From: an uncultured delta proteobacterium
Lineage (GTDB): Bacteria > Desulfobacterota > RBG-13-43-22
Assembly (NCBI GenBank): GCA_963843145.1
Contig: CAWJJC010000002.1
Coordinates: forward strand, 64,001-128,000
Length of the DNA: 64,000 nucleotides
Reading direction: 5' to 3'
This document shows positions 48,586 to 64,000 of the stretch, piece by piece. The position numbers were made by a program, and so were the translations under genes. The first letter of the stretch is position 1; the number at the start of each line of letters is the position of its first letter. The notes below the pieces were generated by a model. The model searched no databases, was not told the DNA's origin, and was given only the letters and a program-made list of their open reading frames with translations.

Positions 48586-49380
48586 ATGACCGGGCCTGAA
48601 AATTTTTTCAATACCTCCGAATGGGCCTTTCAAGATCTGCTGGCCGGAGTGGACCACGTTTGGGAAGTCCTGCCGAAGATCAAAAATTATATCCGAGAAA
48701 CAATCCATCCCAATCTGAAACCGCTTTTCCAAAAAGGCCCCTTCCTGGCCAAAACCGTAGTCCTCTATCAGGGGGATTTATTGGAAGATGGATTTACGCT
48801 GCTCCCCGGCGATGCCACCAAAGGCAATTTTCAGGTCAAATTTGGAGGGATGATACTAGCCGGGGCCACGGTCATTTACGGAGGCGTAACCCTGGCTGGG
48901 GAAGAAATCTCCATCGGAGAAGGGTCCGTGGTGGAATCCGGGGCCTTTATTCAGGGCCCGACCTTGATCGGCCGGCAAACGGAGGTACGGCAGGGGGCCT
49001 ATATCCGCGGGGCCTGCTTAATCGGAGACCGCTGTGTCGTGGGCCACGTCACCGAAATGAAAAATTCGGTTATGCTGGACGGGGCCAAGGCCGGGCATTT
49101 TGCCTATATTGGGGACAGCATTCTGGGAAAGCAGTGCAATCTGGGCGCCGGGACCAAATGTGCCAATTTAAAAATGGTCAAAACCCCCATCACGATAAGG
49201 TGCGACCAAAAGATCTATGAGACGGGGCTGAGGAAATTCGGTGTGGTTATGGGCGACCGGACAGAGACCGGTTGCAACGCCGTGACCAGCCCGGGGACGC
49301 TGCTCGGACCCGGATGTCTGGTGGCCCCCAACGTGACGGTCAAAGGCGGCTACTACCCTCCCAAATCCGTTATTCGCTGA
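48586..49380 (+). CDS. Hexapeptide-repeat (LbH) acetyltransferase, GlmU C-terminal-like
   Basis: EVRQGAYIRG, EMKNS and HFAYIGDSILG..CNLGAGT motifs. Confidence 0.85.
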   Translation: MTGPENFFNTSEWAFQDLLAGVDHVWEVLPKIKNYIRETIHPNLKPLFQKGPFLAKTVVLYQGDLLEDGFTLLPGDATKGNFQVKFGGMILAGATVIYGGVTLAGEEISIGEGSVVESGAFIQGPTLIGRQTEVRQGAYIRGACLIGDRCVVGHVTEMKNSVMLDGAKAGHFAYIGDSILGKQCNLGAGTKCANLKMVKTPITIRCDQKIYETGLRKFGVVMGDRTETGCNAVTSPGTLLGPGCLVAPNVTVKGGYYPPKSVIR

Positions 49381-49391
49381 GGTTTTCCGGT

Positions 49392-50171
49392 ATGGGTGGA
49401 GCGTGCATTGCTTTCAGTCATCGTTTTAAAGCCTGTCCCGACGTAGTCTTTATTCCCCCCCGTCCCAATTTTTCGGACTTTTCCCCGCGAGAAAAAGACC
49501 TGATCCGAACCGCAGAGAAGATTTATTATCCGAACCCGCTCTATGTGGACGTCTTTCTGACCCTGGGGAAATTGATTTTTCCCAGCCGGGAGACGTACGT
49601 TTATTCGGGGGATAAAATCAAACAGACCGTCCTTTTTCAACTCTTACGGATTCCCCATCCTCAAACCCGATTTTATTTTGGACGTCAAAAAGACCGGATC
49701 CCCGGAGAATTCCCCTTTCCTTTTATCGCTAAGATCCCTCGGGGGTCTTCCATGGGGGAGGGGGTTTATTTGATCACTAATGAAACCGAATTAGGGCACT
49801 ATAAGGACCGAAACCCGGTGGCCTATATCCAGGAATACCTTCCTCTGGAAAGAGACCTGCGGGTTGTTCTGATCAATCACCAGGTGATCCTGGCCTATTG
49901 GAAGAAAGGCCGGCCGGGTGAATTTCGCCACAACCTGGCCCAGGGAGGCGAGCTGGATTTTGAGGAGATTCCTGGCGAGGCCTTGCGATTCGCCCAAGAG
50001 GTTACCCGGGCTTGCAATTTTAATGACGTGGGTTTGGATTTATGCCATACTGAAAAAGACGGCTGGATGGTCATGGAAGCCAATATGAACTACGGCCGGC
50101 AGGGCTTGGCCAGCCGGGGATTCATACTGTCGGAGGTCTACCGCTCTCTGGTGGAGAAAGGCGCTATCTAA
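49392..50171 (+). CDS. RimK-family ATP-grasp ligase
   Basis: FPFIAKIP.GSSMG.GV, YIQEYL..ERDLRV, FRHNLAQGG and EAN motifs. Confidence 0.85.
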   Translation: MGGACIAFSHRFKACPDVVFIPPRPNFSDFSPREKDLIRTAEKIYYPNPLYVDVFLTLGKLIFPSRETYVYSGDKIKQTVLFQLLRIPHPQTRFYFGRQKDRIPGEFPFPFIAKIPRGSSMGEGVYLITNETELGHYKDRNPVAYIQEYLPLERDLRVVLINHQVILAYWKKGRPGEFRHNLAQGGELDFEEIPGEALRFAQEVTRACNFNDVGLDLCHTEKDGWMVMEANMNYGRQGLASRGFILSEVYRSLVEKGAI

Positions 50172-50182
50172 TTGAAGATCTT

Positions 50183-50272
50183 TAAATCCGAAATTCGAAG
50201 CACGAAATCCGAAACAAGCACGTCGGATTTCGAAATTCGGATTTCGAATTTGGACCAATAGTATTGGTTAGA
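50183..50272. repeat. Inverted heptamer-repeat array with trailing hairpin (same family as 20161)
   Basis: aaatccgaaattcgaagcacgaaatccgaaac ... tcggatttcgaaattcggatttcgaattt, then ACCAATA-G-TATTGGTTAGAT. Confidence 0.8.
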
Positions 50273-50276
50273 TTTT

Positions 50277-50699
50277 ATGATCGCCATCGACTTGAAATGT
50301 TCTCAAGACCACTGCTTTGAGGGCTGGTTTGCCGGTCTTGAGGTCTTTTATCAGCAGCAGAAGGACGGGGAAATTCAATGCCCCATTTGTGACGACCATC
50401 AAATTTCCCGGATCCTCTCCCCGGTAGCCATTCGCCGGCATGGGGCTGCGCCGCCCCAAACCGTTCCGGAAGCTAAGCCGGGAGCCGCTCTGACCAAGCA
50501 ATGGCAGGAGCTGAAAACGTACCTCCAAGAGCATTTCGAGGAGGTGGGAACGGATTTTGCCAAAGAAGCGTTGAAAATGCACTACGGGGCCACGGAAAAA
50601 CGAAATATCAAGGGATCCTCCACGGCCCAGGAGGAAGAAGTCCTTCAAAAAGAAGGGGTAGAATTCTTCAAAATCCCGATGCTCAAAGAAGGGAACTGA
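50277..50699 (+). CDS. DUF1178 family protein
   Basis: DLKC...H.FEGWF, CPIC and VG.DFAKEALKMHYG motifs. Confidence 0.88.
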   Translation: MIAIDLKCSQDHCFEGWFAGLEVFYQQQKDGEIQCPICDDHQISRILSPVAIRRHGAAPPQTVPEAKPGAALTKQWQELKTYLQEHFEEVGTDFAKEALKMHYGATEKRNIKGSSTAQEEEVLQKEGVEFFKIPMLKEGN

Positions 50700-50879
50700 C
50701 CTTTATCTTTGCATAAAAATTTGGCGAAAGGCATGGATAAATTTATTTTTACCCTTCGGGAAAGCCGGGGAGGCCTCATCTCCTTTGTTCTCCAGGGCTT
50801 GCAGTATAAGGTATACCACTTCGCCCTGGACGCCTCGGATCTGCGGCCTCCGCGACTTTTGCAAAAATAAGGTCCGCGG

Positions 50880-51569
50880 ATGGCCCTTAGCCGGCCGAAG
50901 CAAATTCAAATTTCCCTGGCGGCCAATTTGGCCTACGGCCTCTGTAAACTCTGGTTTTCCACCTGCCGCGTTAAAATTCTCCAGCCGGAAATCCATCAAC
51001 AATGGGCGTTAGGACCTCGGCCCTACATCGGCGCCACCTGGCACCGAGGGGCCATCTTCTATTGCTATTACTACGGCCCGCAGCATCACCAGGTCATGTT
51101 CAGCCAGAGCGAGGATGGAGAATATTTGGCCCGCTTCGCCCAAAAATGCGGCATGATACCGGTGCGGGGCTCTTCCACCCGGGGCGGGGAGCGGGCGCTG
51201 GTCCAAATGATCCGGCACCTGCGCCAGGGTCGGGGGCACTGCGCCACGGTCCTGGATGGGCCCCAGGGGCCGCGCTTCGTCGCCAAAAAAGGGTTGCTGG
51301 TCCTGGCCAAAAATACCGGGGCCCCGCTTCTGCCGGGTAACTGGTCCGCTTCCCGGGCCATCACCCTGGAAAGAACCTGGGACCGGACCATGGTCCCGGC
51401 CCCTTTCAGCCGGATCGCCATCGCCTACGGAGAGCCCCTGTTCATCCCCCGGGATTGCTCCGAGGATGATCTGGAGGGTTTCCGTCTGGAACTCGAAACC
51501 CGTATGAATAATGCGATGCGGGAAGCGGATGATCATTGCGGGTACAGGACCCGCTGGCTGAATTCTTAG
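50880..51569 (+). CDS. DUF374 / lysophospholipid acyltransferase family protein
   Basis: WH, S.SEDGE, VRGSSTRGG, DGPQGP, WDR and P.PFS motifs. Confidence 0.85.
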   Translation: MALSRPKQIQISLAANLAYGLCKLWFSTCRVKILQPEIHQQWALGPRPYIGATWHRGAIFYCYYYGPQHHQVMFSQSEDGEYLARFAQKCGMIPVRGSSTRGGERALVQMIRHLRQGRGHCATVLDGPQGPRFVAKKGLLVLAKNTGAPLLPGNWSASRAITLERTWDRTMVPAPFSRIAIAYGEPLFIPRDCSEDDLEGFRLELETRMNNAMREADDHCGYRTRWLNS

Positions 51570-51894
51570 GGTTGCGTTTAGGGCTGTCTCCACCATTCCT
51601 GGGAACCGTGATTTATTATCGCCGCCATTTTCAACCGAGGGATATCATCACCCGTGTTGAAACTTGCTTCCTGTAATCGTTTAAGTTGCCAATTCATAGA
51701 AATGAAAGAGTACAAACGCAAATCGTTGAAAGATGCCCCCCAGTAAGGGTTCCCGCCATAGCGAAAAATCTCCCTATTTATTATTCTCGAAACCTTGAAT
51801 AATGGGGGCCATTCAAAGGCCAGATCAATAAGGTAACCTGTCTTCCAGCAACGCCAATTTGGCTTAAAGGGGAGCCAGCAAATAGAGGAAATTA

Positions 51895-51931
51895 GGAAAC
51901 CCCGTTTCTCAAGCGAGAGAGGGGGTTTTTG
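51895..51931 (+). terminator. Leader hairpin plus T-tract upstream of a cargo gene (copy 1)
   Basis: GGAAACCCCGTTTCTCAAGCGAGAGAGGGGGTTTTTG. Confidence 0.6.
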
Positions 51932-52017
51932 ATTTTTCCCCTGATACAACAACGAAGGAAGCGAGTCCCTTTCTACGGAGATTCCTGGGCATTAAACAAC
52001 AAAAAAGGAGGTTCGCA

Positions 52018-52842
52018 ATGCGTAGCAGAGAACTATTGGCAGGATTCGTAATGGGCATTGTAATGGGGGTACTGTTTTCGGCGGCTGTGGTGCTGGCCGG
52101 GGGCCTGGAGCCGAGCGGAGGGCCGACTGCTGGCAGTTCGCAGATGTACACCCTGAATCAGATCTATAACCGGATCAACAACGGCACAGCCGCCACCAAG
52201 ATGACCACGTTCACGGAGCCGAGCAGCGGGCCAGCGGCCGGGACCATGCACACGTTGGATGAGATCTACAACCTGGTGGGGTTACGCGCCCCAGTTCCCA
52301 AGACCGGGCAGACCAAAACGGTGCCCTTCGCCGCCCCCTCCGGGTCCGACGGCGACCTGCAGAAGGGGGTAGCCCGGCCGAACCCTCGATTTACGGATAA
52401 CAACAACGGGACGGTGATGGACAATCTGACTGGGCTGATCTGGCTGACGAACGCCAACTGCGCCAACGCCACCAGAGACTGGCTGACCGCCTTGAGCGAT
52501 GTGGTGATGCTTAATACCGCCGGCACAATGAACGGAATAAACTGCGGCGATATCAGCAACGGCGGCAGTCATCAAATCGACTGGCGCCTGCCCAATGTCA
52601 AGGAGCTTCAGAGTCTGATCGATTATGCCTTTTACAACCCTGCTTTATCGAATACGGCCGGGACCGCGCAGTGGAAGGCGGGTGATCCGTTCACCGGCGT
52701 CCAGTCGGCTTACTACTGGTCGAGCTCTACGTACGCGGGCGATACGGGCGTCGCGTGGTACGTGGCCCTGGTCAATGGCCTTGTGGGTGGCGACGTTAAG
52801 TCGAACGCGCTCTACGTTTGGCCCGTCCGTGGTGGACAATGA
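52018..52842 (+). CDS. Secreted DUF1566 (Lcl C-terminal, CLec-like) domain protein; probable DGR target
   Basis: Signal peptide; VPKTGQ, RFTDNNNGTV.DNLTGLIW, DWRLPNVKELQSL and YYWSSS...AW.V...YVWPVRGG motifs. Confidence 0.9.
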   Translation: MRSRELLAGFVMGIVMGVLFSAAVVLAGGLEPSGGPTAGSSQMYTLNQIYNRINNGTAATKMTTFTEPSSGPAAGTMHTLDEIYNLVGLRAPVPKTGQTKTVPFAAPSGSDGDLQKGVARPNPRFTDNNNGTVMDNLTGLIWLTNANCANATRDWLTALSDVVMLNTAGTMNGINCGDISNGGSHQIDWRLPNVKELQSLIDYAFYNPALSNTAGTAQWKAGDPFTGVQSAYYWSSSTYAGDTGVAWYVALVNGLVGGDVKSNALYVWPVRGGQ

Positions 52843-52992
52843 AGATCATTGGGGTTTTTGATTCTTTGGGTTATTTGATCTTCTATGGGGGTGCAGGGGG
52901 CTATGCCCCCGCGGAGCGGAAATTTTTGAGGTTCCGGGATGGTGTTCTCAAAAAAGTTAGCTGATCAGTATCGCAGCAAGGGAGGGATTTAG

Positions 52993-53532
52993 ATGATCTA
53001 CACAACGAAACCGATATTGGGTTTAGCATTGTTTGCGGCCGTTGTTCTGGCCCTGCTGGGTACGTACCAGACAGGTTCAGCAGCGGGAATGGACCCTGCG
53101 GCCAAATGGGCCTGGAGCACTAACGCCGGCTGGATCAATTTCAACCCGATCATCGGCGGAGATGTGGCCGTGTACGGGGATCACCTGGAAGGCTATATCT
53201 GGGCCGAGAATGTCGGCTGGATTCGATTGGGAACCCACACCGGCGGCAGCCCCTATACCTATGCCAACACCGATGCCACCAACTATGGGATCAACCGCGA
53301 TCCCACTGGCATTTTGTCCGGCTATGCCTGGGGCGCCAACGTGGGCTGGATCAACTTTGCCCCCACCGGCGGCGGGGTGACCATTGACCCCCAGACCGGA
53401 GATTTTGCCGGTTACGCTTGGGGGGAGAATATGGGCTGGATCAGTCTCAAAGGAGGTAGCGGGCCCAAAGCCTACGGGGTGGTCACCGATTTTAGCCAAA
53501 TCTTTCTGCCCCTGATCCTGAAGTCATCGTGA
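52993..53532 (+). CDS. Secreted protein with four (Y/W)AWxxNxGWI-type repeats and a C-terminal IFLPLILK tag
   Basis: WAWSTNAGWINF, YIWAENVGWIRL, YAWGANVGWINF and YAWGENMGWISL; GGAGG RBS. Confidence 0.85.
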   Translation: MIYTTKPILGLALFAAVVLALLGTYQTGSAAGMDPAAKWAWSTNAGWINFNPIIGGDVAVYGDHLEGYIWAENVGWIRLGTHTGGSPYTYANTDATNYGINRDPTGILSGYAWGANVGWINFAPTGGGVTIDPQTGDFAGYAWGENMGWISLKGGSGPKAYGVVTDFSQIFLPLILKSS

Positions 53533-53854
53533 GGATTTAGCCGTTACCATCTTTCAAACCAAACAGAGAAGCAGGCAGGGGCACAAAAGGCCCTGCTTCG
53601 TCGCACAGTTCCATGCGTAATCGTTAGATCTCGGTAGCATACCGGCAAAACATTTGTAGGTGAATTCAATGAGGCCAGAAATATTATTTAAAATTGAAGA
53701 AATTATGTATTGGTCTCTGGAGGATACTTTTCTCATTTATTGGTTTATTTTCAGGTCCCTTTTCCCGACCATCCGGCAGACTTTTTATTTGCCTTTGAAC
53801 TCTTCATAATGGGGGGACCCCCATTAACCTCCAATCCTACCAAGGAGGTACCGT

Positions 53855-54693
53855 ATGAAGACCAAAGAGGCCATTACCTTGTTCCAAACCTATCAACGGT
53901 CCAGTCATCGAAAAAGGACCCTACAGAGCTATCTGCCGATGCTCAACCAGTTCAAGGCCCTGTACGGGGAAACGGTATTTGAAAATCTTGGGTCCGATGA
54001 GGTATACCGCTTCCTGGAGAAGCCTGACCCAGGGCTTGGCCCGATCAACCCGGAGACTACGGTATGCCCAGTTAAAATCCCTTTTCAATTTTGTGATCAA
54101 CCGGTGCGATCTGGACATGAAAAACCCCTGCAATACCTCATTGCTCTCGAAAACCTTCCGGACCCCGAAACAAAGTCCCAGGAGAATTTTCGAAAAAGAG
54201 GCAATAGACGAGATCATCTACAACACCAAAAACCTCCGGGACCGGTTGATCCTGGAACTCCAGGCCGTGTGGGCTTCGGGTCGGGGAATCCTTAAAGATC
54301 AAGGTATCGGATATCTCGGAGAGGAAAATAGTCCTCCGGGAGCCGAAGTCCGGGAAGGAGGCCGAAGTGGCCTATATGCCGGAGCCTATTGCCAAGCGAT
54401 TGGAGGAATATATCCGGAACAAAAAGCTGGGGCCGGATGATCGTCTTTTTCCGGTTTCTTATTCAACGGTCAGGTCAATGATAAAAAGTCTTGGTTCCCA
54501 GCTTAAAATTTCGATCAGGCCCCATGACCTCCGGCGGCATTCAGCCACTTATGCCAGCCGGAATGGGGTCCCCCTGGAGATCGTCTCCAAGGTGATCCTG
54601 AGGCACCAGGACCTGAAGACTACCCAGGCCTATTTGGGCAAGGTGAGCGAGACGGAAGCCATCCGGTGGATGGATATCATTCACGGAAAGTAG
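53855..54693 (+). CDS. Tyrosine recombinase/integrase, copy 1 (frameshifted at ~54020 and ~54266)
   Basis: Colinear with 62448-63287 except one inserted and two deleted bases; HDLRRH and LRHQDLKTTQAY motifs. Confidence 0.88.
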
Positions 54694-55276
54694 GCAGGTT
54701 AACCTTTGATTACCATTATAAATCTGGAGGTTTTGGGGGTATTTTTGGGGCGGTCTGGGAGAGGTTTTTAGGGAGACCGGGGGCTATCCGAAGAATAGCT
54801 TCCTGAAATCGTGACCTTTTTGCGATTTTAAAAATATCAGAAGAGTACAAGGCGTAATCGACGATAAATGGGTCTTGATCTTTATCGCCCTCGGAAATGG
54901 CAACAAGGCATGGGTTAAACCAAATTATTAACGGTCTCATAATTGTATTTACACGGGGTGTTCTTTTTATCTCTCGCCCGCTTGGCTCGAGTTCGCCGAG
55001 GGCGCAGAGAAAGACGAATTTCCTTTTTGAAAAATCGCGGAGACGCCGATTTTCCAAAAGAACTCACGCCTCAGGCGGGGTCTTATTCGCGGAGCGGGAG
55101 ATTTTGTCTTTGGTTGTGGCTGGGCGGCGTTAAGAAATCCTGTCAATATTATTTTGAGACCGTTAATAAGTATATTGGGCAAAGTAGGCTAAATAAAAAT
55201 TAGATATCAGCAAGAAAGGTATAATGTTCAGCCTTCCAAGCACAATAAACTTAAGTGGTTACGTTTAGGTGTATTT

Positions 55277-57136
55277 CCTAAATCCACCACCTAATTTTTG
55301 ACAGATCGATATTCCTATTTTTAAATGCTATTTTTACTGGCGGTTAAAGCCTATGGCCCCGGAGGAGGCCCTGCTTGCTCAATTATTTATAAAAAAACAA
55401 CCTCCATTAGCTCGGTGGGCACAAGAATGGGCGCATTTCATCCTTTTCCTGGAAAATTACCCTGACCATCACCAAACGAATCCTTTTAGGTTAATTGGGT
55501 GCCCAATTACCCTGAGGACACCGGATCAAGGGCCATGATCCGGCCTCTGGCCTCCAGAAGAAGATCAAACGCCGGATGTCCTTTCACCAACCGAATGATC
55601 AATTCTCGGGAACGTTCAACAATGCGCCCGGGTAGGTTAATAAACGAAAACCGAATCGCCTTCATTCGCTTGGATACCCAGGACTTCCCTAAAACCAACT
55701 GCTTCATGACGCTATTAAGGTTCAAGGCCAAAATCATGATCCAAAACCAGGCGGCATTCTCACCAAAATCACCAGAAGGTAATTGCCCTCCGGCCAAATC
55801 TCCTTTCATTACCGAATGGGCCTCCTCGGACTTCCCACAACGCTTTCGATGCCAGTCAATCAAGGCCCCCCCCATCCCAATTCATGTTCGTCACCACCCC
55901 GAAAAGCTTGTACCCTTGCCTGCCCATTTGCATCGTCGGAAAAGGTAACGACTGCTGTAATGCGGCCATCCCTGGCAGCGTCATCGACCCCATCCCCTCC
56001 CGGATGGCCAAGTACCGATACACCGGGGACTTCTTACTATAGCCCATCTTTCCGGGAACAAAACAAACCTCGGCCCATTCCTGATTCGTCTTGATCCGAT
56101 ACCCTTCCGACCTCCTTGTAAATCACCTTCCATTCTGATTCCTCTACTTCCAAAACCGCCCTCTTAAACTCCGGGGTCACATCACAGCCAATCGCAAACT
56201 CGATCCGACCAAATCGCTCCTCCTTCCCTTCTTCACAGTATCGGAGTAGCTCATGCTGATATCCCGCCGTGTCGGAACGTAATCGGACTTTCTCAACCCC
56301 TTCCGGCAGTAAAGCCAACGCCTCCTTCAATGACCCGCAATTGCTCATATCCCGCCGGAACATTCCCATCCCGAAACTCCGTATGCAAGACCATCTCCTG
56401 TTCCGCCCACCAGGTGTTCAATGGCTGGTAGGCTTTGTATCCTTTGTAGCCATATAAAGCCTCCCGCTTCGCCGTCTCCACCAAGGTCGCATCCTGATCC
56501 AGCGTCGCTACCTTTTGGGGATTCTGCTTCTGCATAAAATCAACCATTTCTCCGTTCACCTTCTCTAATCCCCTCAGAGCCTCATTCTTGACCGGTATGA
56601 ACGCCTTCCCCTCCACTCGTTTCTTCTCTTGCTCCGCATCGTGAAATAATGACAAATATCGAAAAACTGCAGAGGCGGAAGGCACCGTTCGTCTCCGTTC
56701 CTTTCGCCAACGACGCTCCGCCTCCCGTCTCTCCTGTCGTTTCATCCCTTTGTGTTCTATTCGCCTTAATACCTGACAAAATCCATCATCCCCCTCCAAC
56801 CGGCGTAAATCCTCCACACAATCCCCGCCCGCAAGATTCATCAATATCAACGAGAGTACCGTCTGGGCATCCGTCCAGCCTTGCTTCTTTAGGTGTAAAT
56901 GCCTCTCTATGCTGCCCGCCTATCCCCATCACCGAAGCTAAATCCAGATAAACCGGCAATCCCCCCAACGCCGTCATCCCCGTCTCTTTCTTCTCTTCTT
57001 CGTACTTGAATGAGAGAACTCCTTGTGTCATACTGCCTTCACCTCGTTGATGATAGTTTTTTCTTGTAAAAAAACTCTATCACCTCGTTCCATCGAGATC
57101 AACGAGGTTTTATATTTTTTTGATGGTGAATTAAGG
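55277..57136 (-). mobile_element. IS1380-family insertion sequence
   Basis: Imperfect 14-bp terminal IRs (CCTAAATCCACCAC / ATGGTGAATTAAGG) flanked by a 5-bp TATTT target duplication. Confidence 0.88.
55507..57031 (-). pseudogene. IS1380-family DDE transposase, several frameshifts
   Basis: Fragments TALGGLP, TLDQDAT, EFRDGNVPA, RLRSDTAGY and WHRKRCGKSEEAHSVMK...LPSGDFGENAAW. Confidence 0.85.
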
Positions 57137-57231
57137 TATTTTTGCTTTTATTGAATATGCTGAAACTTTCTGATATTATCCAGGAAACCGTTCAATGAAT
57201 TGGGCGTCGTTAACTAGAAAGGGAGTGAATC

Positions 57232-58102
57232 GTGATTCGTCAGACCATCCTTATCATCGCGTGGGTTCTCGTCAGCGCTGTCCCAGGATTGCTCGCTGCA
57301 GATTTGAACCCTCCAATTCTTCGTACTTCACAGTTCGATCAGCAATGGCTTGACACCGTCGTATCAATTGAACGACAGGTCGAAAAAAAAATGGTTCCGA
57401 TCGGTACTGGCTTCATCGTAGCGACTGCTCGTAAGCACCTACTCCTTGTCACCGCGAAGCACGTCGTTAAAGACGAAAAGGGAGGATTTCGGGGTGATCT
57501 CTTTTATCGCCTAAATCGAGCTGGCGGCTCTAGCCAACAGCTAAAGGATGCTGATCTCGTCAAAGCTGGCATAGGCGCTTGGTTCGAGTCCCCCAAAATG
57601 ATGTTGCAGTCCGCTTCTTGCCCATTGTCCAGGGCGCGTCGGTGAAAGCGATACCCCCTTGACCGCTTTATCGAACAAACACAGGTCGAGGCTGGGGCTC
57701 CGCTGGTGGCGCTTGGATTCCCAATGGGGCTACGCTCTCTGGATCATGCCTTGCCGATCGCCCGTCGGGGGATGATCGGGCCGCGCGGGCTCCAATTCGC
57801 TCCTGGCAGACCTCTTTATCTTTCCCGGAAACAGTGGCGGGCCTGTGCTGTATGTGCCAGCATTCAAGACCGGTGGGGTCTCCTTTGGCGAGGGGGTCGT
57901 TCATAACGAGATGCTCGTCGGCATTGTGTTGTCGTTCATCCCGTACCGAGATGTTGCGGTAAGCGAGCAAACTAAGCGTCCCAGGGTCGTGTTCGAAGAG
58001 AATTCGGGCTTGGCAAACCTGGTACCAGCGTGGGTCTTGAAACGGTTCATCACGACGGGATCTGTCGACTCTCTCGATCAGCAACTCGGCCTACCGAAGT
58101 AG
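57232..58102 (+). pseudogene. Secreted trypsin-like serine protease, frameshifted (pseudogene or assembly error)
   Basis: Signal peptide; GTGF, VTAKHVV, LGFP.G and FPGNSGGPV motifs spread over different frames. Confidence 0.8.
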
Positions 58103-58108
58103 GTCCCC

Positions 58109-58211
58109 CGCCAACCAGCAAATGAACCCGATAAGCAACCACGGGGCAAGTCTCCCGATTTTATCCCAAAGTTCTTAGCCGTGGTTGCTTGCGGGTTATC
58201 CGCCCGCTACT
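58109..58211 (+). other. attC-like (integron cassette) palindromic site
   Basis: CGCCAAC just after the stop; stem AACCCG.TAAGCAACCACGG / CCGTGGTTGCTT.CGGGTT; right core degenerate. Confidence 0.55.
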
Positions 58212-58558
58212 CTAACTTTCAAACCGCAATCATTAAATTTCAGTTCAGTTCCTGATCAACATTTGTAGGTGTGTAGGTGTACAGAGAAATTATGGGGTGA
58301 GGAGGCAGTTTTTTGAGGGATATCAAGATGTTCTTCCTGAAGTCATGTTTTTGATGAATGGGCCATTTTGGAAGACTTCAAACGAAAAGTGTTGCTCGAA
58401 CTCCCACCTTGCTCTTCCCACCCAACGAAATTAAAGTCCTACTTACGAGGCAAAAAATAGTGTATACTTCTGTTCATTCTAAGTTCATAACAATCGAATA
58501 ACCCTCTTCCAGTTTTGCCACTACACTTTTAGGGAGGGCACACAGATGAGAGATTTCT

Positions 58559-58596
58559 GGAAACCCCGTTTCTCAAACGAGAGGCGGGGTTTTTTG
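58559..58596 (+). terminator. Leader hairpin plus T-tract upstream of a cargo gene (copy 2)
   Basis: GGAAACCCCGTTTCTCAAACGAGAGGCGGGGTTTTTTG. Confidence 0.6.
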
Positions 58597-58610
58597 CTGG
58601 AGGGTTTATT

Positions 58611-61600
58611 TTGATTTGTCCCAAGTGTCGAACCGACCTTCCTGAGGGGGCAAATTTCTGCCTGAAGTGTGGGCATGACCTTAAGGCAGACACTGCTGCT
58701 CCCGAACCTCACCACGCTCCTGAAGCTGAGCGCAAGCACGTTACCGTCCTGTTCTCGGATCTCACCGGTTACACGGCCCTGACGGAGAAGTTTGACCCCG
58801 AGCAGGTCAAGCAAATAACCGGACACATCTTCACCAGGGTCAAAGAGATCGTTGCCAATTACGAGGGCTTCATTGATCGATTGATGGGTGACGGGGTGCT
58901 GGCCTTTTTCGGAATCCCGAAGGCCCACGAAGACGACCCGGGCCGGGCCGTTCAGGCCGCCATCGAGATCCATGCCTTCGTCAAAGGGCTCAGTCCCCAA
59001 TACGAAAGCCGCATCGGGGTTCCCCTGTCCATGCACAGTGGGATCAATACTGGTCTGGTGGTGACGGCCGAGGTGGACCTTGAGAAAGGTTCCCAGGAGG
59101 TAACGGGGGAGGCGGTCAACCTGGCCGCGCGCCTCAGCGGTCTGGCCAAACCCGGTGAAATCCTGGCGGGTGAGGAGACGGTGCGGCGGACCAGAGGGCG
59201 GTTCGAGTTTCAGGACCTGGGGGCCAAACGGGTCAAAGGGAAGGCCGAACCGGTTATCGTATTTAGGCTGATTTCCGCCAGAGCTCAAACGCAAAGCCTG
59301 GATCGCCAAGTCTCTTCCGTCATGGTGGGTCGGGACCAGGAGTTGAACCGGCTTGAGTTGCAGGTGATGAAGTCCATCAACGGTGAAGGGTCGGTGGTGA
59401 ATATCATAGGGGAAGCGGGCATCGGGAAATCCCGCCTCATGGCCGAGCTGCGCCAGCGCGAGGTTATACAAAAAGTCATCCTCCAGGAAGGCCGGGCCAT
59501 CTCCATCGGCCGGAACCTGAGTTTTCACCCCTTCATCTATCTGTTGAAACAGTGGGCCAGGATCTCCGAAGAGGACTCGGAAGGCTGCCGCCTTCGACAA
59601 GCTGGACCGGACCATCCGGTCGATCCACCCGGAAGAGGCCGATGAAATACTGCCCTTCGTGGCCACCCTCATGAGCATGAAGCTGAAGGGGAAATACTGC
59701 TGAACGAGTCCGGGGAATCGAAGGCGAGGCCCTGGAGAAGCTGATCTTCAAAAACCTCCGCGAGTTGCTCATCCAGGGGAGCGAACAAACCCCGCTGGTC
59801 ATCGTCATGGAGGACCTGCATTGGGCCGATACAAGCTCCCTTTTACTCCTGCAATCCCTCCTCCGCCTGACCGAGAAACATCGGATTCTCTTCATCAACC
59901 TGTTCCGGCCCGGCTACTGGCAGGGAGAGGACGGGTCCATGGAAAAGATCGGCGACCTGCTGCCCAAACACTACGTGGAGCTGAAAATCCAGCCCCTGGA
60001 CCCGCAGGCCGGCGAGGCCCTCATTGCCAACCTGCTGAACATCCCGGGGCTGCCCTATTCCCTCCGACAGCAGATCATCGAACGGAGCGGCGGCAACCCC
60101 TTTTTTATCGAAGAAGTGGCCCGCTCCCTGATCGAAGACGGGGCCATCATCCGTTCCGGCGAGTCCTTTGAAGTGACTGATAAGATCACCTCGGTAGTGG
60201 TCCCCTCGACCATCAACGATGTGCTGATCGCTCGGATCGACCGCTTGGAAGAACAGACCCGGGAGTTGGTCAAAACGGCCGCGGTGATCGGACGGAGTTT
60301 CTTCGACCGGATCATCAGGGATGTGGCCGCTTCGATCGACGGGCTGGACCATCGACTGGGCTACCTCAAGGATACCCAACTGATCCGGGACCGGGTGCGG
60401 ATGGAAGAGTTGGAGTATTTCTTCAAACACGCCCTTGCCCAGGAGGCGGCCTACGAATCCACCCTCATCCAGCAGCGCAAGGGCTTGCATCTCAAGGTGG
60501 CGAAGTCTATAGAAAAGGTCTTCCAAGAGAGACTCCACGAGTTCTACGGCCTGTTGGCCTTTCACTACGGGAAAGGGGAAGACCTGGAAAAGACGGAAGA
60601 ATACATGGCCAAGGCCGGGGAGGAAGCCCTGTGGGCGTCCGCCTCCAGTGAGGCCCTGCACTACTACCAGGAGGCTTTGAGACTCTATGTGAACAAACAG
60701 GGCCAGGCCGCCGACCCGGAAAAGCTGGCCCAGTACGAGAAAAACATTGCCATTGCCCTGGCCAGTAAAGGGCAGCTTGTCGAATCCGTCAAATACTTCG
60801 AAAAGGTGCTGGACCGCTGGGGGGCGCCACTGCCAAAAAAAGGCCTGGCCGCTATGGTTAGACTCATCGGTGATTTTTTGGTTATTATCAAGGCGCTCTA
60901 TATTGGTCAGCACCGAACCAGGAAGGCGCTTAACGAAAGGGAAAACGAAATATTAGAGTGCTCCTGGAGAGTCGCCACAGCGCTCAGCTATTTCGATGTT
61001 TTCCAGTATATGAAGGTTTCCATGGGCACTATGAAGAGACACATTAGAACCGGCATTTCAACCCTGCCTAATGGATGGAACGCTTGGGTGGCAATATCCG
61101 GGGCTTTTTTATGGCTTTCCTTTAAGCTCAGTAACCGGATGCTGGAGATCTCACAACGGCTTGGGAAGGCGGTAGATATCGGAGGCCGAATTCATTTTGC
61201 TTGCTGGAGCACTTTTAACCAGCACTGTCAGGGAACCTGGGACCAGATCAAGGAGATGGATAGAGATTTATTGGATTCTTCGCTTGGAATTGGAGAATTC
61301 TATAACTATGGAACCTATTTGTGGTCTTATGGCGTGGTTAAAGGGGAACAGGGGGAGTTTAAGGAGGTGCTGCAGATAATTGAAACTTTATTCAATAGCT
61401 GGTCAGTCCTATGACAAAAGCGAAATTACGTTAAATGCCATAGGCCTGAAAATAGATTTTTTGGTCCGGAAGAGGGTGGCCTATGATTTCCTGTATGGAA
61501 GCTGATCAGTTTTTTCTATATGCCCGCGAAAAAGGGACCGAACTCCATGAGCTTGGGGGGCATGGCATTCAAGGCTGAATCCCAGATACTACTCAGCGAT

Positions 61601-62164
61601 TGGGACGGGGCCAACGAATCGCTGTCACAAGCCAAGGCGATTTATGATAGGCAGAAGCGGATCATCCCTGTTGCCGCTGCCCCTTATCTTGCGGCACATC
61701 TATTGTTTAATATCCATCGCTTGGAACAGGCTGTCCTTTCGGGGGATTCCTCGAACCTGGCTCCTATCCGCAAGCAGGCCTATCAGTCCGGCCAAGCAGC
61801 GGTCCGAAATTCACGCAAATACGCCCCTTACCGGACCAAGATCTTCAGACTGATGGGGCGCTACTACTGGCTGGTCGGCAAGCAGCGCCAGGCGCTTAAG
61901 TGGTGGGCGCGGACCATCCGGGAAGGCGAACGACTCGGGGCACGCCCCGATCTGGCCCGCACCTATTTTGAGGTGGGCAAATCCCTGATAGAACCTCAAA
62001 GCAACTACCGGGAACTCAACGGCCTCAGCGCCCAAGAATATCTGGACAAGGCCGAGAAGCTGTTCCGGGAGATGGACCTCCAATGGGACTTGGAGCAACT
62101 GGAACGGGTGGGCAGTGCGTGGTTAGACTTCGAGTCCGGCAGCAAACAGATTCTTGCACGCTGA
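58611..62164 (+). CDS. Class III adenylate/guanylate cyclase with N-terminal zinc ribbon, AAA (STAND-type) ATPase and TPR-like C-terminus; several frameshifts
   Basis: CPKC...FCLKCG, ERKHVTVLFSDL.GYT, GDGVLAFFG, GEAVNLAARL, GEAGIGKSRL, EDLHWAD, GNPFFIEE and FKHAL motifs. Confidence 0.85.
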
Positions 62165-62447
62165 AAAAGAATTGCGATTAATGAACCCTTAAGGATGATG
62201 AACATTTTTAACCGTAATCGTTGAATCTTGTGTTCGGTAAAAAACAACAGTTGTAGGTGCATTCAACGAAACCTTAAATATAAAGTAAAATTAGTTATTT
62301 AAGAAAATGACCTTTGAGGGATTCCCGTTTTTTAGGTTATATTTGCCGGGTCATTTTCAGACCATACCTCAGCCTTTTTATTTGCCTTTGAAATCCTCAT
62401 AATGGGGGGACCCCCATTAACCTCCAACCCCACCGAGGAGGTGCCGT

Positions 62448-63287
62448 ATGAAGACCAAAGAGGCTATTACCTTGTTCCAAACCTATCAGCGGTCCAGTCA
62501 CCGGAAAAGGACCCTTCAGAGCTATCTGCCGATGCTCAACCAGTTCAAGGCCCTGTACGGGGATACGGTATTCGAAAATCTCGGGTCTGATGAGGTATAC
62601 CGCTTCCTGGAGAGCCTGACCCAGGGTTTGGCCCGATCAACCCGTAGACTCCGGTATGCCCAGCTCAAGTCCCTTTTCAATTTTGTCATCAACCGGTGCG
62701 ACCTGGACATGAAAAACCCCTGCAACACCTCGCTGCTCTCCAAGACCTTCCGGACCCCGAAACAGAGCCCCAGGAGAATTTTCGAAAAAGAGGCGATCCA
62801 TGAGATTATCTACAACACCAAAAACCTCCGAGACCGGTTGATCCTGGAACTCCAGGCTCGCTGTGGGCTTCGGGTCGGGGAGTCTTTAAAGATCAAGGTA
62901 TCGGATATCTCGGAGAGGAAAATAGTCCTCCGGGAGCCGAAGTCCGGGAAAGATGCCGAGGTGGCCTATATGCCGGAGCCGATTGCCAAGCGTTTGGAGG
63001 AATATGTCCGAACCCAAAAACTGGGGCCGGATGATCGTCTTTTCCCGGTTTCTTATTCAACGGTCAGGTCATTGATCAAAAGCCTTGGGTCCCAGCTTAA
63101 AATTTCGATCAGGCCCCATGACCTCCGGCGGCATTCGGCCACTTATGCCAGTCGAAATGGGGTCCCCTTGGAGATTGTCTCCAAGGTCATTTTGAGGCAC
63201 CAGGACTTGAAGACCACCCAGGCCTATTTGGGCAGGGTGAGCGAGACGGAAGCCATCCGGTGGATGGACATCATTCACGGGAAGTAG
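62448..63287 (+). CDS. Tyrosine recombinase/integrase, copy 2 (intact)
   Basis: Catalytic residues in GLRVGE, PKSG, HDLRRH and RHQDLKTTQAY; GGAGG RBS. Confidence 0.93.
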   Translation: MKTKEAITLFQTYQRSSHRKRTLQSYLPMLNQFKALYGDTVFENLGSDEVYRFLESLTQGLARSTRRLRYAQLKSLFNFVINRCDLDMKNPCNTSLLSKTFRTPKQSPRRIFEKEAIHEIIYNTKNLRDRLILELQARCGLRVGESLKIKVSDISERKIVLREPKSGKDAEVAYMPEPIAKRLEEYVRTQKLGPDDRLFPVSYSTVRSLIKSLGSQLKISIRPHDLRRHSATYASRNGVPLEIVSKVILRHQDLKTTQAYLGRVSETEAIRWMDIIHGK

Positions 63288-63547
63288 GCAGGTTAACCTG
63301 TTGATTACCATTATAAATATGGAGGTTTTGGGGGTGTTTTTGAGGCGGCCTGGTGGAGGTTTTTAGGGAGACCGGGGGCTATCCGAAGAATAGCTTCCTG
63401 TAGTTTTGTTTTAGAATTATGGCCTGACCTGCCAGATTTCAAACGAAAATTATTAGTCATCACCCAAATAGACACGGTGAAGGTATCCCCAGCTTTTTTC
63501 CACGAGCCTATCCCTACCAGGATCAATAAAATACTCTTTTTGCCTTA

Positions 63548-63576
63548 TTGACATTGAGTCTTTCCCGATCAATAAT
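63548..63576 (+). promoter_or_regulatory. Possible sigma70 promoter for the last cargo gene
   Basis: TTGACA-17 bp-AATAAT. Confidence 0.4.
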
Positions 63577-63669
63577 TCATTAATATTATGAAGATACTAA
63601 TATTTCCAGGTTAGGGGTCCTGCTGTAAGTTTGAATAAACCACTATTGAGCGATGGAGGCCTGTCAGCG

Positions 63670-64000
63670 ATGAAATTCATTCGAATCCTGATCCTCGGGA
63701 TTGTTAGCCTATTTCCAGCTTTTATAATAGTTCCTTCATCTCAAGCGGTCGATGCCGTGGTCGGGGGGGCCTGTACGGATACAGAATTCAATACGGCTTT
63801 GAACACCGTTCAAAGCACGGGAGGCGGAACGATTACCTTCAACTGCGGCACGTCGCCGGTCATCATTACCGTAACCGGGGCCAAGCCCATCAGCAGCCAA
63901 ACGACCATTGACGGTGGATCCCTGATCACTCTCAGCGGCGCGAATGCCTCTCGGGTTTTCTTGGTGAATCCGGGCATATCGCTAACGTTAAATAACCTGA
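63670..64000 (+). CDS. Secreted beta-helix / polymorphic-membrane-protein-like protein, 3' end outside the window
   Basis: GGAGG RBS; my translation MKFIRILILGIVSLF...SQA-VDAVVGGACTD...GGGTITFNCG...TIDGGSLITLSG..ASRVF.V stays open to the window end (absent from the ORF track). Confidence 0.75.
   Translation, partial: MKFIRILILGIVSLFPAFIIVPSSQAVDAVVGGACTDTEFNTALNTVQSTGGGTITFNCGTSPVIITVTGAKPISSQTTIDGGSLITLSGANASRVFLVNPGISLTLNNL

Follow-up and report, generated by a model that had tools for sequence, protein, structure and literature searches.

We analysed a 64,000-nucleotide (nt) stretch of the genome of an uncultured delta proteobacterium (GTDB lineage Bacteria; Desulfobacterota; RBG-13-43-22), covering positions 64,001 to 128,000 of the forward strand of contig CAWJJC010000002.1 (assembly GCA_963843145.1) and here called the window, and found a one-strand chain of head-to-tail modules of 2-6 kb at its right-hand end. 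Each module consists of a recombination-type site (R), cargo genes and a second, related site (L). Five modules occupy window coordinates 51666-67967 (16.4 kb), extending past the end of the window, where a fourth L plus joint lies at 65382-65547 and the fifth module ends at 67967. The joints between modules hold either the gene for a 279-amino-acid (aa) tyrosine recombinase (the integrase, int) or 50-61 nt resembling the end of the integrase 3' flank. We consider it about as likely as not that mobile gene cassettes, with R-cargo-L as the unit, are strung head to tail in the region, which probably represents an undescribed cassette-like site-specific recombination system, with a logic that resembles integrons, Acinetobacter dif modules and tycheposons. 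No description of the R-cargo-L layout with a joint recombinase was found in open-access article text. A first-pass annotation of the window had proposed the order R-cargo1-L-int-R-cargo2-L-R-cargo3-L-int-R-cargo4, with sites bounding cargo modules in tandem, and both proposals proved correct.

The L pattern has exact matches at 53616, 58225 and 62213, with the identical spacing originally reported, and any match at all arose in none of 100 shuffles. For R, exact matches lie at 51667, 58333 and 63394, and three matches were reached in none of 100 shuffles; all three sites had been recognized from the start, but two of them one nt off, at 51666 and 63393. The variant R described alongside them was recovered with CTTCCTG at 54799-54805 and CAAGGCGTAATCG from 54848, 43 nt further on. 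Each site is a bipartite end of 54-63 nt, combining an outer motif (GCTTCCTG in R, TTGTAGGTG in L) with an inner 21-bp core on the cargo-facing side. The core is an imperfect palindrome (TTCAAAC-N7-GTTGAA; 7+7+7 nt) in direct orientation in R and L, in agreement with the related core that had been noticed in both site types. R consists of GCTTCCTG, about 33 nt and the core at its 3' end (consensus gCTTCCTGaAgTCtTgttttTga...tGcaAGAtTtCaAACGnaAATcgTTg), and L of a core of the same kind at its 5' end, about 15 nt and ACAGTTGTAGGTG (consensus TTcaAaCcgTAATCnTTnAnTct...AacAgTtGTAGGTG). Conservation breaks off sharply at the outer motif of each site, GCTTCCTG for R and GTAGGTG for L.

Profiles seeded with the first L and R sites and iterated across the whole 5.35-Mb assembly revealed 27 R and 18 L sites, spread over 13 contigs, and the same site family was found in relatives: among 21 genomes of the family, the numbers of R and L vary together, with 0/0 at the lower and 57/60 at the upper extreme. 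For 15 of the 18 L sites, the nearest site upstream, at most 8 kb away, is an R on the same strand, with cargo enclosed between the two, and no R/L pairs on opposite strands were found. L-to-R joints numbered only five, versus the 27 R and 18 L sites. Beyond its own training members, a profile of the integrase-less joint spacer (x) detected nothing, and the idea of lone modules flanked by x was dropped for that reason. The minus-strand open reading frames (ORFs) across R are dissimilar and of low complexity when translated, so that R is not coding. Folding with DNA parameters, compared with dinucleotide shuffles, revealed no excess hairpin potential for R (mean z -0.38 for the top and -0.41 for the bottom strand, n = 27), for L (mean z 0.07 and 0.01 for the two strands, n = 18) or for three L-x-R joints (z 0.92, -0.82 and -0.56). 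Rfam gave no credible RNA family in window 49000-64000 or in two further loci (L043 and L044), and a dif-like pattern matched no core-resembling site.

Modules are present, absent or swapped among closely related genomes and among loci of the same assembly. At the DUF374 locus, which marks the left-hand side of the chain, related genome G002 has the DUF374 gene and the right-hand gene about 200 nt apart, with flanks 94-97% identical and the 16.4-kb chain absent; G001 has 2 kb of different DNA; and in G003 the locus spans 11.5 kb containing other R, R and L sites, the last L lying beside the same right-hand gene. The comparison across strains that the first-pass annotation had proposed for this locus therefore shows a strain-specific chain. 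Elsewhere in the assembly, the module at C26:8416-12818 equals that at C20:535139-538972 (98-99% identity) within unrelated flanks, and the identity of this 3.8-kb unit begins exactly at GCTTCCTG and finishes at GTAGGTG. Contig C26 (21.6 kb) is in turn 90-99% identical to part of C12 (389-20934) except for a different module; either there are two strains in the assembly, which has an estimated contamination of 6.89%, or the duplication is recent. One locus carries three different modules (in C12, C26 and G003), all ending at the junction GTAGGTG|GAGTCCG. The paralogous cargo 1 modules of the window's contig (C2) and of C27 have cargo that is 71-84% identical and very different R outer arms, and the C27 copy finishes with a bare core that runs into R-type downstream sequence, as would be expected from core-by-core recombination.

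The integrase gene in the last joint of the window (copy B) had been called intact, and we agree: its product matches PF00589 (70.7 bits, cut-off 27.1) and PF02899 (24.8 bits, cut-off 22.3) and has a complete set of catalytic residues (R142, K165/168, H224, R227, H251 and Y260). With a SAM-like core-binding domain and without an arm-binding domain, it belongs with the simple CB+CAT tyrosine recombinases, in classification terms taken from excerpts of PMC8138268. The closest solved relatives are XerA (4a8e, 5hxy; archaeal) and XerD. The protein falls far under every curated model cut-off, including those of integron integrase models (TIGR02249, 55.4 bits versus 265; NF011946, 29.7 bits versus 435), with both of these matches confined to residues 15-191 of 279. 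Copy A, in the first joint, is 92.6% identical to copy B and carries a +1 insertion at 54020 and a -2 deletion after 54266. The two copies align at about 90% from around 53736 through the G of CTTCCTG, where the similarity ends. Named relatives of both the integrase and the DUF374 protein come from metagenome-assembled genomes of Desulfobacterota/Thermodesulfobacteriota.

The link between integrase and sites extends across families. All three copies in the genome (two in the window, one on C20) lie between L and R at the same spacing, and in families f12 and f29, with integrases 63-66% identical, R follows the gene at all four loci and L precedes it at two. Whether homologues always sit between L and R had been suggested as a check, and this holds only in part: R lies about 110 nt past the integrase stop (gene or fragments) in five of nine relatives' loci, and among homologues of 56% identity or less none of 21 loci had L or R in the expected position at E<0.05 (matches had E>=0.6). 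In other families, the integrase-bearing genomes G259, G086 and G406 hold 23, 4 and 1 R sites, and two integrase-less genomes hold none. These sequence comparisons support L and R as recombination-type sites tied to the 279-aa integrase family.

If cassettes move as we propose, the recombinase, acting in cis or trans, would carry out conservative site-specific recombination at the bipartite ends, and cassettes, or joints together with cassettes, would be excised as circles. The circles would then be re-inserted beside resident cassettes or at secondary sites, building strain-specific chains at hot spots such as the position after the DUF374 gene. This integrase would presumably be the catalyst, and crossover would take place in either the core or the outer motif. 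More tentatively, and with somewhat less than even confidence, we suggest a previously undescribed cassette system of Desulfobacterota in which promoter-bearing, often multigene cassettes with double-stranded bipartite ends (GCTTCCTG+core; core+TTGTAGGTG) are captured, excised and reordered by a joint-encoded Xer-like recombinase, with up to about 60 cassettes per genome and a specialization in (Y/F)LPLI.(K/R)-tailed secreted repeat proteins and cyclase-type signalling proteins.

A number of observations weigh against integrase-driven cassettes. Just one of the three integrase copies in the genome is intact. Four genomes rich in sites (G010, G014, G005 and G001, with 18-57 R and 7-60 L) are without a detectable integrase homologue, and the description of the recombinase as dedicated could not be upheld in view of two of them, G010 (57 R, 60 L) and G014 (38 R, 53 L). 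All four are draft genomes in which repeats break contigs, and repeated integrase copies may be unassembled; the pattern is weak evidence and may reflect such an assembly artefact or another enzyme at work. Core spacers differ systematically between L (TAATC) and R (AAATC/AAATT), which argues against a simple L-by-R crossover and would hinder one at the cores. Breakpoints are inconsistent, falling at outer motifs in C26, C20, C12 and G003 and at cores in the C2/C27 comparison. The 'empty' site of G002 is not a clean footprint, and the predicted empty site CTTCCTG(T/A)AGGTG has no exact match in the genome and six one-mismatch matches, all within unrelated coding-looking sequence. Nor was a precise footprint found in relatives for the modules on C27 and C12 or at C20:79938 and C28:604738, the flanks being non-syntenic there or the site holding other variable DNA. 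Finally, a search of two soil-metagenome contig sets (shares 0.14 and 0.05), made up of short pieces, returned no joint at L or R, no excision junction and none of the circle junctions that had been suggested as a check.

An alternative that we consider rather unlikely is that only the joints are mobile. On this account L-int-R would be a 1.3-kb integrative element resembling an insertion sequence (IS) and L-x-R its non-autonomous derivative of about 170 bp; both would insert by core-by-core recombination into a host palindromic core, and the cargo would be ordinary island DNA that lies, unmoved, between insertions. L-int-R is indeed laid out like a classic attL-int-attR element, the cores lying in direct repeat on the outside and the arms within, and this layout is kept at 63-66% protein identity. 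The integrase family also comprises 2543 metagenomic proteins at E<=1e-10, with many clusters found solely on contigs of 1-1.4 kb, as a repeated, multicopy element would give; to go by neighbouring coordinates, joints whose x measures about 52 nt appear repeatedly in G010, G012 and G014; and the C27 site resembles an excised joint. Most sites, however, are lone halves (R without upstream L or x, L without downstream R) whose conservation ends sharply at GCTTCCTG and GTAGGTG, and a whole R-cargo-L unit occurs at two loci with exactly these ends. The core part of the L pattern is moreover matched only three times in the genome, which leaves no pool of free target cores. The first-pass annotation had named an IS inserting independently of cargo as the finding that would overturn its reading; that case does not hold here, most L and R sites standing without an integrase and bracketing cargo. 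A simple IS, or a miniature inverted-repeat transposable element (MITE), independent of cargo was rejected on the five L-to-R joints against 15 cargo-enclosing R-to-L brackets and on the duplication of a whole bracket with sharp ends.

The cassettes could also be real and be moved by a different enzyme, either host XerC/XerD or a second recombinase pair, with the 279-aa integrase gene as a passenger or parasite of the joints, a possibility to which we assign a low probability. Besides the plentiful sites in genomes without a detectable integrase homologue, the Xer-type arm-spacer-arm form of the core favours this view, as does an element of about 2.1 kb on C10 (in L007, G000:C10:91691-95482, minus strand). 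The 379-aa and 297-aa tyrosine recombinases that this element encodes, in overlapping genes, share about 27% identity with the integrase of the window. The element has inverted ends (CTATACGTAC...) and sits precisely within the CTTCCTG of an R site, flanked on C10 by CTTCCTG on either side, which shows that recombination targets the outer motif too. Its other two copies lie at C28:349917-351561 and at C13:73080-74724, where it runs into the contig end; the C10 and C28 elements end about 158 nt before an R, the same end abutting R on both, and such recombinase pairs also stand beside R sites in G019 and G001. In contrast, the constant geometry of the integrase with L and R across families speaks for a cognate pairing, repeated integrase copies may be missing from the draft genomes, and the core had no canonical dif-like match. 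Less probable still, in our judgement, is that R and L serve a large regulon as regulatory or architectural sequences, one operator lying upstream of a shared promoter and another behind the terminator, with an integrase element that merely targets both. A promoter-like element (CCTATTTAC, 17 nt, TGTATAAT) does follow R directly at a fixed distance, with a conserved leader, in at least seven modules; the palindromic core would suit a dimeric regulator, and cargo is biased towards secreted and signalling proteins. Such a regulon fits poorly with a copy number of 0 to about 60 within one genus, module presence or absence between near-identical genomes, an identical module at two loci, integrase genes at the joints and the many R sites that precede other leader types.

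Among known systems, integrons share with the chain of cassettes proposed here a tandem arrangement of co-oriented, diverse cassettes, an adjoining simple tyrosine recombinase and arrays that vary between close strains, the present one missing from G002 and replaced by other content in G001 and G003. In contrast to integrons, the integrase lacks the IntI insertion and scores far below integron-integrase cut-offs, the sites are not hairpin-forming inverted repeats, cassettes measure 2-6 kb, are often multigene and come with their own promoter-like leader, and the integrase gene lies between cassettes, co-directional and several times per array. An integron-like mechanism, as first suggested, is therefore not borne out, since the integrase fails the integron-integrase models and hairpin potential is no higher than in shuffles for R, L and L-x-R, whereas the layout was rightly said to differ from a classical integron, to judge by model scores, hairpin test and integrase placement. 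It was rightly set apart, too, from RIT elements (three adjacent tyrosine recombinase genes), which we rejected on the single integrase gene per joint. Lambda-type attL-int-attR integrated elements and Xer-exploiting integrative elements (IMEX) resemble L-int-R in having direct-repeat cores outside and element-specific arms inside, but here the integrase is without an arm-binding domain, the element measures only 1.3 kb and half-sites also occur alone, capping cargo.

Tycheposons reportedly use tRNA genes as integration sites and have partial tRNA repeats on their flanks. A tRNA-targeting island or tycheposon was rejected here, as ARAGORN found no tRNA or tmRNA gene in seven module-bearing loci elsewhere in the genome, outside the window, and no Rfam RNA family was present at window 49000-64000. 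The likeness lies in cargo elements with and without integrase that are piled in tandem at hot spots and drive strain-level variation, as excerpts of bioRxiv 10.1101/2020.12.28.424599 describe for Prochlorococcus. In Acinetobacter, dif (pdif) modules consist of accessory genes bounded by short Xer-type sites and shuffled between replicons; according to excerpts of PMC6449649, PMC7399989 and PMC13141974, their 28-bp XerC/XerD sites alternate in orientation on plasmids, and host Xer proteins are thought to act on them. Here, too, accessory-gene modules bounded by short Xer-type sites are strung together, but the ends are bipartite (54-63 nt), in direct orientation and chromosomal, with an Xer-like gene at joints. 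The comparison with Xer/dif modules otherwise comes down to the 7+7+7-nt core in direct orientation, the dif pattern that matched no core-like site and the abundance of sites in genomes without a detectable homologue of this integrase.

If the integrase does move R-cargo-L units, the system would be a second, mechanistically different solution to the integron task of gene capture and array building, relying on double-stranded palindromic cores where integrons use folded attC sites, on cassettes with their own promoters and on recombinase genes scattered through the array. Differences between strains in the surface and signalling genes of a large, mostly uncultured phylum would then also be accounted for, and new compact recombinase/site pairs would become available. 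Even under the rival explanations, L and R make up a defined family of repeats by which variable islands in these genomes can be recognized.

Features of the chain and its surroundings in the window (window coordinates)
Feature	Position	Strand	Remarks
DUF374 gene	50880-51569		Pfam
R site 1	51666-51728	+	GCTTCCTG, 33 nt, core ACAAAC-GCAAATC-GTTGA; left end of chain
Promoter-like element and leader of about 120 nt ending in terminator hairpin	51774-51935	+	No Rfam match
Cargo 1	52018-53532	+	Lcl_C/DUF1566 protein, 52018-52842; Trp-repeat protein, 52993-53532, ending FLPLILKSS
L site 1	53609-53662	+	Core TTCCATG-CGTAATC-GTTAGAT, spacer, TTGTAGGTG
Integrase pseudogene (copy A)	53855-54693	+	Two frameshifts
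R site 2, variant form	54798-54861	+
MITE-like repeat	54925-55169	no strand	29-nt inverted ends; multicopy genome-wide; inserted after R site 2
Degraded DDE transposase (DDE_Tnp_1_4)	55507-56850	-	Within module 2; Pfam
L site 2	58218-58271	+
Joint spacer x, without integrase gene	58272-58331	+	Resembles final 50-60 nt of integrase 3' flank
R site 3	58332-58394	+
Cargo 3	58611-62164	+	Zinc-ribbon/cyclase/AAA_16/TPR gene split into 58611-59645 and 59765-61414; then 214-aa ORF, 61520-62164
L site 3	62206-62259	+
Intact 279-aa simple (CB+CAT) tyrosine recombinase (copy B)	62448-63287	+
R site 4	63393-63455	+	First bases double as 3' half of terminator-like hairpin after the integrase gene
Start of cargo 4, secreted protein	63631-64000	+	Module reaches L at 65382-65435

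A usual module begins with R, followed by the promoter-like element and leader and then by one to five cargo genes on the same strand. Among the cargo products are Lcl_C proteins, beta-helix and PMP-repeat proteins, SBBP propellers and two cyclase-AAA-TPR proteins. Within the window, Pfam confirmed the DUF374 gene and the DUF1566 assignment in cargo 1, while the Trp-repeat protein assigned alongside it gave no Pfam match. The cyclase-AAA protein of cargo 3 was likewise confirmed, its gene being split into ORFs of 344 and 549 aa (58611-61414), and an intact 1133-aa paralogue lies at C28:604981-608382. Two assignments were not confirmed: cargo 2, taken for a protease, is mostly degraded DDE transposase, with Pfam giving only minus-strand DDE_Tnp_1_4 fragments and leaving six of the eight tested ORFs familyless, and the supposed beta-helix of cargo 4 had no Pfam match in the part inside the window, the beta-helix/PMP-repeat matches coming from other R-L modules. 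A C-terminal tail, (Y/F)LPLI.(K/R), is frequent among cargo proteins; it occurs within the last few residues of 33 of 16596 frames of at least 100 aa, 13 of them inside R/L modules, and may be a C-terminal sorting signal.

The leader that follows the promoter-like element has a UCUUCC/GGAGGA stem and a strong terminator hairpin. A second copy lies in the window at 58440-58600, with further copies on C27, C28 (two), C10 and C21, and leaders of other types stand after many R sites. The leader with the stem and terminator could be an attenuator or a small RNA.

Several dispersed repeats also occur in and near the chain. The MITE-like repeat is 84-93% identical to dozens of copies on many contigs. 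A short palindromic repeat resembling repetitive extragenic palindromes, at window 50177-50260 (AAATCCGAAATTCGAAGCACGAAATCCGA plus its complement), has many near-identical copies genome-wide, and another short dispersed repeat, past the end of the window (G000:C2:133324-133443; window 69324-69443), has copies of 80-90% identity on most contigs.

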